Of a stretch of 64,000 bases of DNA, positions 11,931 to 53,308 are shown one piece after another; position 1 is the stretch's first letter; each line of letters begins with the position of its first letter. The stretch is from Bacillota bacterium. Its GTDB lineage: Bacteria; Bacillota; Dehalobacteriia; UBA4068; UBA4997. The notes below the pieces were generated by a model. The model saw only the letters and a list, made by a program, of their open reading frames with translations. It was not told where the DNA came from and did no database searches. Location: NCBI GenBank assembly GCA_021769035.1, contig JAETTP010000001.1, positions 35,408-99,407 on the forward strand, given 5' to 3'. A program made the position numbers and the translations under genes.

Positions 11931-12249
11931 TCTATTATTATAGCATTTGTTTTTGTTGTTGTCAATGCCCTTTTGCCGCCCAAACTCTTTAATGCCTAAT
12001 TTTTACCTAACCGCACCAGCAATACCTTTTCTCAATCGCTAAGTGTTCATAGAGGATTACATTTGCCTAAAGTCAAATGTATGCGTGAACACTAAGCTCT
12101 TGCTACGCCTTACAGGCTAAGCACTCGCTAAGTGTTCACGCAAAAAAACAGTAGACTTTTTGAGCTTGTGGGTGTAAAATATATTTATAAAAATTGTTAA
12201 AGCTTTCAGAAATCGACTTTGCTAACTTGCTCGATTGGAGGAATCAGCG

Positions 12250-42965: not shown

Positions 42966-43129
42966 TGACAACCTCACATCAAAAATTTTTGATATAATTA
43001 TTATATATTGATCTCGGCGATTTGTCAATAGGCTAAATCAAAATATTTTGATATATTTGTAGTGCTATAGGTTATTTCTAATCAACTGTTATTTCAAATA
43101 GCATAGCCAAGCTTGCCAATCGCTAAGTG

Positions 43130-43178
43130 TTCGCACAAAAAACCCTCGCAAGCATTTCACTCCGAGGGTTTTTATTAT
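43130..43178. terminator. bidirectional intrinsic terminator
   Basis: aaaaccctcgcaagcatttcactccgagggttttt. Confidence 0.6.
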
Positions 43179-45078: not shown

Positions 45079-45503
45079 CTATCTTTTTGACCAACCGCGG
45101 ATTCGTCTATCGTTTGTACCGCGATTTTTTCCGGTTGTTTAGCGGCGGTCAACAAGCCGCCATCCTGCAAGGTTTTCAGCAGCTTTTTGCGCAAAGCCGG
45201 CACGCTTTCTGCTTTGGCGCCCTGGCGAGCAATCAGCACATAATCAAAGCCAGTTGCAAAAGCTGCCAGTTCCAAACGGCAGGCCTCGCGCAGTTTGCGG
45301 CGCACTCGGTTGCGCTCCACCGCATTGCCAATCTGTTTAGATACGGAAAAGCCCAGGCGCGGCCCGCAAGCGGTTTGCTTTTTTTTAGGCCCCGTGACAC
45401 GCCGAAAACACAGCACAAACGCCCGATTTTTCAGAGATTTACCTCTTTGATAAACCCGACGAAAGTCCTGCCTTCTTTTCAATCGAAATTGTTTTTTTAA
45501 CAT
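45075..45503 (-). CDS. rnpA: RNase P protein component
   Basis: RNR motif region and basic composition. Position after rpmH. Confidence 0.9.
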
Positions 45504-45520
45504 CTTGGCTTAACCGCAGA

Positions 45521-45655
45521 TTAAGCAGAGAGAACTTTGCGCCCTTTTGCCCGGCGGCGGGCCAAAACCTTGCGTCCGTTTTTGCTGCTCATACGCGCCA
45601 TAAAACCATGTACTCTCTTGTGTACACGTTTTTTCGGCTGATAGGTTCTTTTCAT
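45521..45655 (-). CDS. rpmH: 50S ribosomal protein L34
   Basis: [44 protein letters not shown]. Below the ORF-track length cutoff. Confidence 0.9.
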
Positions 45656-45943
45656 AGTACATTACCTCCATTCTGTTTTTGCAAGTTTAGCATTTAACTG
45701 CATTTTAAGCAGTTAAATTATATCATATACAAAACGGCGGCTTTTGTCAAGCAGTTAATTACAAAAAGATGTTTATAAAAGTTTAAACTTTTCCACAAAA
45801 TATACCTTGTAAAAGTGGAAAAAATTTGGTATTATAGATAAGCGGGATATTTTTTCGCCCAATTTGGTTGACATTTTAAATTTTGTCCCCAGTTTTCTGT
45901 TGAAAACCCCGCCGGATTTTTTTACCCTAGGAGAATTTATTTT

Positions 45944-47293
45944 ATGAAGTATGAGCTATGGCCGCAAATTTTGGCCGATTTACAACAACACCTCAGTCAG
46001 GAAACTATTGAACGTTGGTTCAACAACGTCATCGACGTTGACAAGCGCCAATCCACCCTATATATCAAAGTGCACACGGACGGACAGGCGGAATGGATGG
46101 AAAAGCACTATGCGCAAATTTTACAGGAAAGTGTAATCAAGGTAGCCGATGAAAATTTGGACGTGGTTTTCATCATCAGCGATAACCAGCCCGCCTTGGC
46201 CAATCAACAGACGCAAACCCAAGCAACTTACCAGCCGGAGGCCTACACGGCCCAAGGCAACCGTTTTAATTTCAATCCGCGTTACAACTTTGAAAGCTTT
46301 GTGGTTGGCAGCAGCAACCGTTTTGCCCACGCAGCCGCCCTGGCGGTGGCCGACCGCCCGGCCAAAAACTATAACCCGCTGTTTCTCTATGGCGGCTCCG
46401 GCCTGGGCAAAACTCATTTAATGCACGCCATCGGGCACCGGGTGCTCAGCCTGCGCCCAAACACCAATATTCTCTACATATCCACCGAAACTTTCACCAA
46501 TGAATTTATTTCCTCGGTGCGGCAGGGCTCCGCCCACAAATTTAAAAACCGTTATCGCACCGCCGACATCTTTCTAGTGGACGATATTCAGTTTTTAACC
46601 GGCAAAGAAGGAACCCAGGAGGAATTTTTCCACACCTTTAACGCGCTTTATGAGCAGGGCAAGCAAATTGTGATCAGCTCCGATCGGCACCCCAAGGACA
46701 TCGCCACTTTGGAGGAGCGTCTGCGCTCGCGCTTTGAGGGCGGTCTGATTACAGATATTCAGCCGCCGGATTTGGAAACCCGTATCGCAATTCTTCAATA
46801 TAAATCATCGGTGGAAAATTTAAAAATCACTAACGATTCGATCGCCTATATCGCTTCCAACATTCCCTCCAATATCCGCGAGCTGGAGGGCGCTCTGAAC
46901 CGAGTAAAATATTACGCCCTGGTGACTAACTCGCCGATTATTGATTTAAGCCTGACGGAAAAGGTAATGGAGGATATTTTGCCCAACAAGCAAAAGCAGG
47001 CCCTTTCCCCGGATTTAATCAAAGAATGTGTAGCCAACTACTTCAATCTGCAAAGCGCGGCCGATTTAGCCTCGCCCAGGCGCGATCAGAGTATCACCAA
47101 GCCGCGCCACATTGCGATGTATCTTTGCCAAACCCTGCTACATATGAGCCTGAACGAAATCGGCGAGCACTTTGGCAAACGCGACCACACCACGGTTTTG
47201 AACGGAACCAAGAAAATCACCAATAACCTGAAGCTGGACCTCAATTTGCAGCAATCCATTCAGGAGCTGACCGATATTATCAAACGGGCCTGA
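45944..47293 (+). CDS. dnaA: chromosomal replication initiator DnaA
   Basis: AAA+ GGSGLGKTHL. C-terminal DNA-binding domain. DnaA-box variants TTTTCCACA upstream. Confidence 0.95.
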   Translation: MKYELWPQILADLQQHLSQETIERWFNNVIDVDKRQSTLYIKVHTDGQAEWMEKHYAQILQESVIKVADENLDVVFIISDNQPALANQQTQTQATYQPEAYTAQGNRFNFNPRYNFESFVVGSSNRFAHAAALAVADRPAKNYNPLFLYGGSGLGKTHLMHAIGHRVLSLRPNTNILYISTETFTNEFISSVRQGSAHKFKNRYRTADIFLVDDIQFLTGKEGTQEEFFHTFNALYEQGKQIVISSDRHPKDIATLEERLRSRFEGGLITDIQPPDLETRIAILQYKSSVENLKITNDSIAYIASNIPSNIRELEGALNRVKYYALVTNSPIIDLSLTEKVMEDILPNKQKQALSPDLIKECVANYFNLQSAADLASPRRDQSITKPRHIAMYLCQTLLHMSLNEIGEHFGKRDHTTVLNGTKKITNNLKLDLNLQQSIQELTDIIKRA

Positions 47294-47364
47294 ACGTTTA
47301 TATTGACAACAGTACTATATTATAGTAAAATATAGGCAAATAATTTTTATAGTGAGGTATAGTT

Positions 47365-47472
47365 ATGCATCTTCCAGTTTATTCTTATGTCTTATCGGCT
47401 GTCAATGTAGTAATATTAGTTGCTATGACCTATTTGGTCTATCGAGTAGCTAAATTTTTCCTGAAAAAGTAA
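47365..47472 (+). CDS. 35-aa hydrophobic Lys-tailed membrane peptide (MHLPVYSYVLSAVNVVILVAMTYLVYRVAKFFLKK)
   Basis: Promoter TTGACA-17-TAAAAT at ~47306. SD GTGAGGT. Strong terminator gagccgcccttttcaaacaaagggcggctttttttgtg immediately after stop. Confidence 0.45.
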   Translation: MHLPVYSYVLSAVNVVILVAMTYLVYRVAKFFLKK

Positions 47473-47539
47473 AGTTTAAGAGAACGAGCCGCCCTTTTCA
47501 AACAAAGGGCGGCTTTTTTTGTGTAAACACTTAGCGATT

Positions 47540-47950
47540 GACAAGTCCACTTTTTTTAGATAACAGCTTTTCCACCTGTGCAGAAAAAAAACTTTTTCTT
47601 AAACCGAAATCTTCAAAAAAAACCTATTGTGATATTCCGTTAATTATAGTATAATATTCAGACACAGAAAAGTTTTTCCACCGAGTTTTACAGATTTTGG
47701 AAAACTTTGTGCACATTGGCTGTTATTAATCTGTGTAAAACTAATTATGCCAGTTAAAAAAAGGTTTTTTGCACAAAATTACCCCAGGCAATTAACATTT
47801 TATACCCACGCCAAAAAAGGCAGCAAAACCTTATAAAATCTGGCTGCAAAAAGTTTTCCACAAAATAAACACAGCTTATTATTATTACCACCATTTAAAT
47901 AACTATAATAATATATATGAGCCTCACAACAATAATATTACCAAAGGAGT
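47540..47950. other. oriC region (dnaA-dnaN intergenic)
   Basis: Multiple DnaA-box-like 9-mers (ttttccacc x2, gttttccaca). AT-rich unwinding stretch. Internal TTGTGA-17-TATAAT promoter. Confidence 0.5.
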
Positions 47951-47958
47951 AAAATTCA

Positions 47959-49071
47959 ATGAACATTAATTGCCAAAAGGAAGATTTACTGTATGCCGTT
48001 CAGATTATCGGCAAAGCGATTTCAGCCAAAAATACAATGCCAATCTTAAACGGTATTTTAATTATTGCTGAGGAAAATTTTATCACCCTGCGGGCCACCG
48101 ATTTGGATATTGCTATTCAGTGCAACGCTCCGGCTGATGTGGTGGAAACCGGCGAGCTGGTGATTGCCGACGGCAAGCGTTTTATTGACGTGGTACGCCA
48201 ACTGCCGGATAATAATATTAATATCAGCCTGATTAATGATTTTGATATTAATATAAATTATGGCTCTTCTTCTATTAATATGCGTGGTTTTGCCGCCGAC
48301 CAATTTCCGCAGCTGCCCAATCTGGCCGGGGATATGCAGGCCAGTGTTAAGGGCGAGGTTTTTTCCCGCATGGTTAAGCAGACGGCTATTGCTTCCGCTA
48401 ACGACGAAATTCAGCCAATCCTCACCGGTATTATGCTGGATATTAACGGCGAGCAGCTGAATTTGGTGGCTACCGATTTTCACCGGCTGACCCTTTGTCA
48501 GGGAGTTTGGCAGACTCAAAACCAACAGCAGACTCAGGTTATCGTGCCGGCTAAAACTATGTTGGACGTGGCTAATCTGGCCGATGCGGAGGAACAGGTG
48601 GAAATCAGTATCAGCCATAACAACGCTTGCTTTAAGATGGGCGCAACTATTTTTGTTTCCCGCCTAATCTCCGGCCAGTTCCCGGATTATCGGCCGATTA
48701 TTCCCAAGGAGGAAAGCTTTAAACACCAGGTTTACGTCAACAAGCAGCTGTTGGGCAGCGCGCTGCGCCGGGCCAGCCTGCTTAGCAAGGACATAAACAA
48801 CACGGTGCGCCTGAAGTTTGAGGAGGGGCAGATCGTTATGACCGCCAACACTACGGATATTGGCAATATCCGCGAGGTTATCCCGGCTGATTTTCAGGGC
48901 GAGGAGCTGATGGTGGGCTACAACCTTAAATATCTTTTGGACTTTTTGAAAGTGAGCAGCAGCGAAAATATTTATATGAAGCTTTCCGGCAATTTAACCC
49001 CCGGCGTGATGTTGGAGGAGGATAACGCCAGCTTTACTTATATCGTGCTGCCGCTGCGTTTGATTGACTAA
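47959..49071 (+). CDS. dnaN: DNA polymerase III beta sliding clamp
   Basis: Three-domain beta-clamp. Conserved position. Confidence 0.95.
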   Translation: MNINCQKEDLLYAVQIIGKAISAKNTMPILNGILIIAEENFITLRATDLDIAIQCNAPADVVETGELVIADGKRFIDVVRQLPDNNINISLINDFDININYGSSSINMRGFAADQFPQLPNLAGDMQASVKGEVFSRMVKQTAIASANDEIQPILTGIMLDINGEQLNLVATDFHRLTLCQGVWQTQNQQQTQVIVPAKTMLDVANLADAEEQVEISISHNNACFKMGATIFVSRLISGQFPDYRPIIPKEESFKHQVYVNKQLLGSALRRASLLSKDINNTVRLKFEEGQIVMTANTTDIGNIREVIPADFQGEELMVGYNLKYLLDFLKVSSSENIYMKLSGNLTPGVMLEEDNASFTYIVLPLRLID

Positions 49072-52148: not shown

Positions 52149-52216
52149 ACCTCTTATTTTGGGGTTGGGCACTCACGTTTGCTTTTGCGGGCTTGGTGGG
52201 TGTCCTTTTTTATTTT
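52149..52216 (+). ncRNA. sRNA X2 (near-identical duplicate of X1), convergent with RHH2
   Basis: TTGCCA(52114)-17-TATAAT(52137). Same hairpin plus U-run overlapping the RHH2 stop codon. Confidence 0.4.
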
Positions 52217-52380
52217 TTTAACCTGTTATAGACCTCTTTAATACCTTGGCGAATGATTTCAGATTTTGTCAATCCAGTTTCTTGGACACAAAATTCAAGA
52301 CGTTTTATATCTTCTTCTGATAATCTAATTCGCGTATTTAATATTTTAGGGTCATTGGTTGGACGTCCTTTTGGGGACAA
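52210..52380 (-). CDS. ribbon-helix-helix (CopG/MobC-like) small protein RHH2
   Basis: TTG start after AAAGGAGGTG. (M)SPKGRPTNDPKILNTRIRLSEEDIKRLEFCVQETGLTKSEIIRQGI. Promoter TTGACA-17-TATAAT (52457-52428) overlapped by palindrome GTATCCACA-N14-TGTGGATAC. Confidence 0.6.
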   Translation of the reverse strand: MSPKGRPTNDPKILNTRIRLSEEDIKRLEFCVQETGLTKSEIIRQGIKEVYNRLKK

Positions 52381-52523
52381 GTTTTCACCTCCTTTTAGTA
52401 TCCACAATTATTATATGATATGTGGATACATTTGTCAAGAGGTTTTTGAAAAGTTTAGATTGTAAGCATAAAAAAACCTCCTAAAGTATTGAAATAACCC
52501 TCGGAAGCTGGTATAATAGATTT

Positions 52524-52599
52524 ACCGACCTCTAAAGGTTGTGTGTAATAACAGTATTGCTTGGCTTGTTTAGGGTGTTGCAATACTGTTATTTTTTTT
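52524..52599 (+). ncRNA. sRNA X3, convergent with RHH3
   Basis: TTGAAA(52489)-17-TGgTATAAT(52512). 11-bp stem aacagtattgc/gcaatactgtt plus U8. RHH3 stop lies in the stem. Confidence 0.4.
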
Positions 52600-52762
52600 G
52601 GCTCAAAAGTAAACTTATTCCTTGCCTAATTGCTTCGCCTTTAGTTATATTATTTTCTAAACTGTAAGCTTGCAATTTTTCTTCAGTTTCTAAATCTAGT
52701 CGAATACTGTACCGAATTGTTTTTGGATTATCTACTTTTGGACGACCAGTGCGTGGACTCAA
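52589..52762 (-). CDS. ribbon-helix-helix (CopG/MobC-like) small protein RHH3
   Basis: TTG start after AGGTGA. (M)SPRTGRPKVDNPKTIRYSIRLDLETEEKLQAYSLENNITKGEAIRQGI, paralogous to RHH2. Promoter TTGACT-17-TATAAT (52820-52790). Confidence 0.6.
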   Translation of the reverse strand: MSPRTGRPKVDNPKTIRYSIRLDLETEEKLQAYSLENNITKGEAIRQGISLLLSQKK

Positions 52763-52877
52763 ATCATCACCTACTTTCTGCCACACCATAATTATATAAA
52801 AAGCGTGACAAAAAGTCAATAGTTTTTTTGAAAAAATTCAGATTGACAAAAACAATTTAAAATGCTATAATAATAAA

Positions 52878-53031: not shown

Positions 53032-53308
53032 AGGCCTCACCTCCTTTTGGAGGATATTGACTAACCGTTAAGTGAGCACTTAGCGACTGCCAAGGCCGCA
53101 GGCCGCAGACAGAGCTTAGTGCGAACAAATACCGCAGGTGCAAATAGAATTGTCTGAAAACAAAACTTTGCTCCTGCGGTGCCTACCGTTTGTTACGATG
53201 CCTGTTTAAATTATACAAATTATTGTTCTTATTGTCAAGCTGCGCATAAGTTTTTGCTAACCTAATTTTGCGATTGACAAAAGCGATTTGAAATGCTATA
53301 ATAAAAGC

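Follow-up and report, generated by a model that had tools for sequence, protein, structure and literature searches.

A candidate membrane-peptide gene inserted between dnaA and the DnaA-box cluster of an uncultured Firmicute

The window, by which we mean the whole 64 kb stretch of DNA analysed, belongs to an uncultured Firmicute whose source so far is only metagenome assemblies. Its DnaA is matched by other metagenome proteins at 77-89% identity, by 'Firmicutes bacterium' MAG proteins at 69-75%, and at about 50% by the closest named DnaA proteins (Paenibacillus). The dnaA stop codon (47291-47293) and the dnaN start (47959) are separated by a 665 nt spacer. Directly 3' of the dnaA stop is a block of about 210 nt on the plus strand (47294-47545, with an approximate right-hand boundary) that is missing in the spacers of the relatives sampled, and to its right is a conserved oriC core (47555-47958), which includes a cluster of DnaA-box-like 9-mers (47555-47862), a promoter, and an AT-rich stretch before dnaN. 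The core promoter, TTGTGA-17-TATAAT (47627-47655, plus strand), is located upstream of most of the DnaA boxes, points towards dnaN, and is kept in all relatives examined. A second cluster of DnaA-box-like 9-mers is present upstream of dnaA (45770-45906).

The block has the organization of a compact transcription unit, with all of its elements on the plus strand. At its left end is a sigma-70-type promoter, TTGACA-17-TAAAAT (47303-47331; TTGACA at 47303-47308, TAAAAT at 47326-47331), which matches at 11 of 12 positions and is the joint-best promoter-like match within 45400-48200; transcription would start near 47338, giving a predicted leader of about 27 nt. This is followed by the Shine-Dalgarno sequence GTGAGGT (47352-47358), whose GAGG core (47354-47357) is 7 nt 5' of the ATG, by a 35-codon ORF (47365-47472; ATG start, TAA stop) that codes for MHLPVYSYVLSAVNVVILVAMTYLVYRVAKFFLKK, a predicted single-pass membrane peptide, and by an intrinsic terminator (47486-47522; dG = -20.7 kcal/mol) with a 12-bp stem containing seven G-C pairs (47486-47515), a 6-nt loop, and a T-run. 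The initial annotation reported a promoter, Shine-Dalgarno sequence, 35-codon ORF, and strong terminator in the dnaA-dnaN spacer, upstream of the DnaA boxes, and all of these are present in the sequence at slightly corrected coordinates; the gene lies outside the cluster, the 9-mers of which begin at 47555. A scan from the dnaA stop (47293) up to the ORF yields no terminator-like site, and dnaA transcription is thus predicted to read through into the ORF. The -10 region of the peptide promoter, ATTATAGTAAAATAT, matches the conserved oriC promoter (47643-47657) at 14 of 15 positions, with an overall match of 24/50, and this likeness of the -10 regions hints, suggestively only, that the peptide promoter may derive from a local duplication of the oriC promoter.

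In the peptide, a short N-terminus leads into a hydrophobic helix, in which S11 and N14 are conserved, and the C-terminal end is a basic tail (RVAKFFLKK) containing R27, K30, K34, and K35. Its most hydrophobic 17-residue stretch has a mean Kyte-Doolittle value of 2.37, and an AlphaFold model consists of one helix, residues 4-34, with a pLDDT of 86. Dinucleotide shuffling of the 192-nt spacer gives an ORF of at least 35 codons with a Shine-Dalgarno sequence and ATG in 0.22% of cases, and in the whole 64 kb this is the sole ORF of 20-60 codons with an ATG and Shine-Dalgarno sequence that has a strongly hydrophobic 17-mer; the arrangement is therefore more than chance. Most same-species contigs spanning the ORF have it among their gene-caller predictions.

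We compared the spacer with the dnaA-dnaN loci of seven relatives, whose DnaA proteins are 89% (L096/L097 and L195-L197), 88% (L198-L200), 82% (L098, L099), 79% (L100), and 77% (L102) identical to that of the window. The peptide ORF is missing from the spacers of all seven by tblastn, HMM, and small-ORF scans, and a plain terminator follows dnaA in its place. In the closest three relatives this terminator is about 35 nt past dnaA and precedes a conserved promoter and DnaA-box core matching those of the window, so that the spacer is 460-469 nt long, versus 665 nt in the window, with the promoter-ORF-terminator block accounting for the surplus. The core is alignable across the relatives from about 47590-47600 onward. 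The relatives' spacers contain no other small ORFs with a Shine-Dalgarno sequence and ATG, and the idea that the spacer is a hot spot for small ORFs was rejected on this ground. Searches of the literature turned up no relevant report of small proteins or ORFs located in the dnaA-dnaN spacer.

The only relative with the block is a sister strain (L105-L108; 97.4% nucleotide identity), in which the promoter is identical, the terminator is essentially unchanged, the Shine-Dalgarno sequence is GAGGG (L105), and the peptide carries the replacements V5A and T22I. Because the ORF is missing in all seven relatives and a plain dnaA terminator is found there instead, we read the peptide block as a recent, lineage-specific insertion beside oriC and not as an oriC component. 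The initial annotation had placed the peptide gene in oriC and called this unusual; a conserved feature of oriC it is not, in that the seven relatives are without the ORF at oriC and the only homologue is at an unrelated locus. Conservation of the ORF, which it proposed to look for in relatives' oriC regions, is absent there but is found at another locus in a second lineage.

Fifteen contigs carry the same dnaA, the peptide gene, or both, and 14 of these are 100% identical to the window over the dnaA-dnaN overlap; same-species contigs are therefore uninformative on selection. The fifteenth, L094, aligned with window positions 45944-48046, has 17 substitutions, all of which are within dnaA and leave the protein unchanged, with none in the next 753 nt (the spacer and the start of dnaN) and none in the 440 nt upstream, a pattern that looks like a recombination mosaic within dnaA. 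Also within dnaA is a match to the Rfam family AsdA, an antisense RNA of dnaA mRNA (46388-46468, minus strand), which was set aside as probably due to chance; its score of 25.6 bits (E = 0.021) is below the gathering score of 52.

A phmmer search of 1.84 billion representative proteins returns exactly one other cluster, P0122 (MHLPISAHILSVVNFILLVGMCYIVYRVIKHCKRK), a 35 aa protein with 52% identity to the window peptide (E = 8e-4 for the whole library). It has the close variants P0124, P0125, and P0126, the last found by searching with the 44-aa stop-to-stop translation of L109, and identity to the window peptide across the variants is 51-54%. A search for homologous proteins with the peptide padded with five X residues yields no further member. 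In JGI metagenomes and IMG/VR, scans with the peptide profile find no relatives, there are no tblastn matches in phage and plasmid collections, and the family HMM finds no further copies in six-frame translations of 200 loci and the window, nor a paralogue in the 64 kb. Searches of Pfam (including its type I toxin families), NCBIfam, PADLOC, and PHROGs yield nothing significant at E values up to 10, and a PDB profile search with the peptide is empty. The peptide and its homologue appear to constitute a tiny orphan family, so far represented in two lineages of uncultured Firmicutes. The retrieved contigs of the two host lineages have no genes in common, and GC3 does not separate them.

The homologue is in a quite different setting. 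The gene order at its locus is a rodZ-like gene, a rimO/miaB-type gene, pgsA, cinA, a gene coding for a 236-aa lipoprotein, the peptide gene, a convergent tRNA gene, and ruvCAB-queH-spoIID. In L109 the peptide ORF begins 27 nt past the lipoprotein stop codon and has its own Shine-Dalgarno sequence (GGGGGT, 8 nt before the ATG) and its own bidirectional-looking terminator; no promoter-like site of its own was found for it. In one contig examined from a JGI relative (L114, RuvC 89% identical) the lipoprotein gene is followed by a terminator, the tRNA, and ruvC, and the peptide gene is missing. Thus in both lineages the position taken by the peptide gene is bounded by an upstream stop codon and a terminator, and the related genomes examined have no copy there. 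We note that the L114 lipoprotein gene (44-604 onward), a homologue of the gene preceding the L109 peptide gene, has an in-frame stop codon, reflecting either a pseudogene or an assembly error. The window and L109 loci share no neighbouring gene, with dnaA upstream of one and the lipoprotein gene upstream of the other, and no lipoprotein homologue is present within the window; without a common neighbour, no partner protein can be proposed.

To the right of the gene, and adjoining it but not part of it, is a 31-nt species-specific repeat patch, TTTTTGTGTAAACACTTAGCGATTGACAAG (47515-47545), that is a 90% match to 43112-43142. The motif CGCTAAGTG is located within it on the minus strand (47528-47536) and is present in five copies in the window, compared to 0.4 expected. 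The initial annotation noted this motif behind the peptide gene, and the two are not linked, as the sister strain L105 keeps the gene with unrelated sequence in place of the patch; the patch is also missing at all other loci. Copies of a repeat with the core TCGCTAAGTGTT are found at 12032-12047, 12125-12148, 43112-43142, 47515-47545, and 53077-53085 in the window, and among the fetched loci the repeat is confined to same-species contigs. The copies at 43112-43142 and 47515-47545 come after a terminator and have the form TTTTTGTG..AACACTTAGCGATTG.CAAG, and those near 12100 and 53100 are accompanied by a partial copy in inverted orientation (CACTAAGC...GCTAAGTG). The repeat may serve as an operator or a promoter-associated site, or it may be a small mobile repeat. 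Two adjacent small ORFs near one CGCTAAGTG copy (52210-52407 and 52589-52819, both on the minus strand) code for mutually similar proteins of 65 and 76 aa with the shared pattern GRP..D.PK....IRL.......L..........TK.E.IRQGI, which by eye resemble ribbon-helix-helix, antitoxin-like DNA-binding proteins.

The peptide gene differs from host genes in composition. The window ORF is 32% GC, with a GC3 of 31% compared with 58-62% in dnaA and dnaN, and its composition equals that of the surrounding AT-rich non-coding DNA. Both copies of the gene are similar in this respect (about 32-33% GC, GC3 31-33%), whereas host genes have a GC3 of 55-77%. Within lineages there are eight non-synonymous changes and two synonymous changes, and the replacements are chemically conservative (V/A/I, T/I, I/F, H/Y, C/Y); this short-range excess of non-synonymous changes would fit relaxed or diversifying selection rather than strong constraint. 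In the second lineage, the strains L111 and L193 differ by seven substitutions in the 108-nt ORF and by 27 in the flanking 3390 nt (Poisson p = 3e-5 for the whole ORF). Six of the seven fall within 23 nt (L111 4073-4095, codons 25-32), in strains otherwise 99.2% identical over 3.4 kb, and the cluster marks either a hot spot of the cytoplasmic tail or a short patch converted from a paralogue that was not seen. The pattern appears to be that of a patchily distributed, compositionally foreign, and fast-evolving accessory gene, which could have spread through horizontal transfer or, alternatively, through translocation combined with loss.

A nucleotide comparison of the ORFs of the window and L109 supports coding. 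The two align without indels, with the ATG and TAA in the same columns, and nucleotide identity is 62% within the ORF, whereas in the flanks it is 30-37%, the level of random sequence. By codon position the 41 differences split 13/9/19, with pN = 0.27 and a saturated pS of 0.80; these selection tests represent a single deep comparison of 35 codons between two diverged lineages. Nineteen of 35 residues are identical, compared to 12.1 +/- 1.9 when 41 random substitutions are placed on the window ORF (permutation p = 4.5e-4), and only 14% of such mutants are free of stop codons. Residues M1-H2-L3-P4, L10, S11, V13, N14, L18, V19, M21, Y23, Y26-R27-V28, K30, and K35 are invariant in all six variants, and V25 is kept in five of the six, with I in P0126. 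With the same start and stop, unalignable flanks, and a pN of 0.27 at saturated synonymous sites, the ORF is probably a true protein-coding gene. The earlier proposal of a small membrane-peptide gene is thus borne out to the extent that frame and amino acids are constrained in a second lineage and the structural model is a single helix.

Two alternatives dispense with the peptide. The ORF could be untranslated; the block would then represent either a diverged 3' region of dnaA or a gene for a small RNA, and the open frame would be incidental. Several features are compatible with this: the GC and GC3 values are close to those of the neighbouring non-coding spacer (30% GC) and unlike those of host genes, hydrophobic residues come readily from T-rich sequence, the changes within lineages are mostly non-synonymous, and the promoter-to-terminator unit of about 185 nt is a typical size for an sRNA. 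These features do not explain why frame, length, start, and stop are kept in the second lineage in spite of saturated synonymous sites and unalignable flanks, nor the excess of identical residues and the open frame that few equally mutated sequences retain. Moreover, the Shine-Dalgarno sequence is correctly spaced in both lineages, the homologue, having no promoter-like site of its own, does not constitute an independent sRNA unit, and Rfam has no match at the locus, and we consider an untranslated ORF quite improbable. Alternatively, it could be the transcription unit that matters rather than the peptide, with a strong promoter directed towards oriC and a strong terminator modulating local supercoiling or DnaA access and so tuning initiation in this species. 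Transcription of mioC and gidA has been reported to modulate initiation at E. coli oriC, and the unit described here similarly is promoter-driven, is located beside a DnaA-box cluster, and points towards it. It ends 33 nt before the first DnaA-box-like site, the likeness of its -10 region to that of the oriC promoter suggests local duplication, and the sister strain preserves both promoter and terminator unaltered. But unlike the mioC and gidA units it is terminated before the boxes, is missing in close relatives, and has an ORF that is conserved away from origins. A terminator alone suffices at this place in seven relatives, and the conservation of the protein in a homologue remote from any origin argues that the ORF itself is the selected unit; a role of this kind in initiation seems very improbable.

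Two further readings retain the peptide. It could be a type I toxin, a membrane-damaging peptide repressed by an antisense RNA that simple scans do not recognise, with the module having landed beside oriC. Type I toxins are hydrophobic proteins shorter than 60 aa that have a transmembrane segment and carry charged residues at the C-terminus (PMC6563280). The initial annotation noted a type I toxin style, and the peptide does have this generic build (35 aa, one predicted transmembrane helix, a charged tail); it is not in any described toxin family in Pfam, NCBIfam, PADLOC, or PHROGs. Type I toxins of Firmicutes include the Fst/Ldr-type toxins, BsrG/BsrE, TxpA, PepA1/SprA1, and the C. difficile CD2517.1 family, to which the peptide gene appears similar in its single helix and basic tail and in being compact, AT-rich, and patchily distributed with a strong terminator; a lineage-specific presence at different loci, low GC, and fast evolution are likewise common for such modules. 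No antisense promoter had been recognised initially, whereas our scan, for the sigma-70-type consensus only, identifies two minus-strand promoter-like sites that overlap the ORF, 47405..47376 (10/12) and 47501..47473 (9/12). The better of these is not conserved in the homologue, where TTGACA is replaced by TTAACA and the -10 element is gone, and such matches are abundant in this AT-rich stretch, with 15 found and 5.5 expected from shuffles, about a threefold excess. The L109 minus strand has no promoter-like site within or downstream of the ORF, and a convergent tRNA gene is downstream. The short predicted leader with its exposed Shine-Dalgarno sequence, the near-consensus promoter, and dnaA read-through suggest constitutive expression, unlike that of tightly repressed toxins, and no conserved antisense promoter or antitoxin RNA was found. 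The L109 copy, 27 nt behind the lipoprotein gene, is the last gene of a housekeeping-type operon, the peptide is not in a prophage, IMG/VR, or the phage or plasmid collections, and in the sister strain the 30 nt just past the terminator have been replaced with the gene untouched. A type I toxin is therefore, in our view, unlikely. In the other reading, the gene would be a mobile or exchanged conflict-type 'tail gene' that repeatedly settles between a stop codon and a terminator and is expressed by read-through, with its tail diversifying as in toxin, immunity, or phage-exclusion peptides. Here it would have captured dnaA read-through together with a copy of the oriC promoter, coupling its dose to dnaA transcription and possibly to replication initiation. 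The six substitutions in 23 nt between the 99.2%-identical strains L111 and L193 (p = 3e-5) would be a mark of diversifying selection, but we give this reading little credence.

The interpretation that we favour, and think reasonably probable, is that the ORF is a genuine gene, that its product is a membrane peptide of 35 residues with a single helix, and that the gene is a passenger beside oriC with an accessory role. It would be transcribed constitutively, both from its own near-consensus sigma-70-type promoter and by dnaA read-through, and translated from a short, unstructured leader with a good Shine-Dalgarno sequence. Its terminator would double as the dnaA terminator, halting transcription before the DnaA boxes as the plain terminator does in the relatives. 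By the positive-inside rule, the N-terminus would face outward and the basic C-terminal tail would be cytoplasmic. The product would be a non-essential accessory membrane peptide making helix-helix contacts through S11, N14, Y23, and Y26-R27, either with another membrane protein or with itself, and with a juxtamembrane basic/aromatic tail that evolves quickly. This accessory role, as judged from the sequences, is a best guess, although it is the most likely one. AcrZ, MgtS, KdpF, and CydX are small proteins with a single membrane pass that act as modulators of larger membrane proteins. The peptide is reminiscent of these in its size range (about 30-50 aa), single helix with the polar residues S11 and N14, and positive-inside tail, and the L109 copy resembles them in being an additional short cistron with which an operon ends; it differs in that it has no homology to them, no conserved partner gene, and a far narrower distribution.

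If the conflict-type or the toxin reading were true, with the peptide expressed through dnaA read-through, a membrane peptide would be linked to the expression of a replication gene, although none of the findings requires that. As it stands, the peptide adds one more unannotated small membrane protein family, without a match in Pfam, NCBIfam, PHROGs, PADLOC, or PDB. The locus also illustrates that a gene-like unit inserted between dnaA and the DnaA-box cluster need not belong to the origin, and it calls for caution both in the annotation of oriC and in hunts for type I toxins that are guided by peptide style alone.
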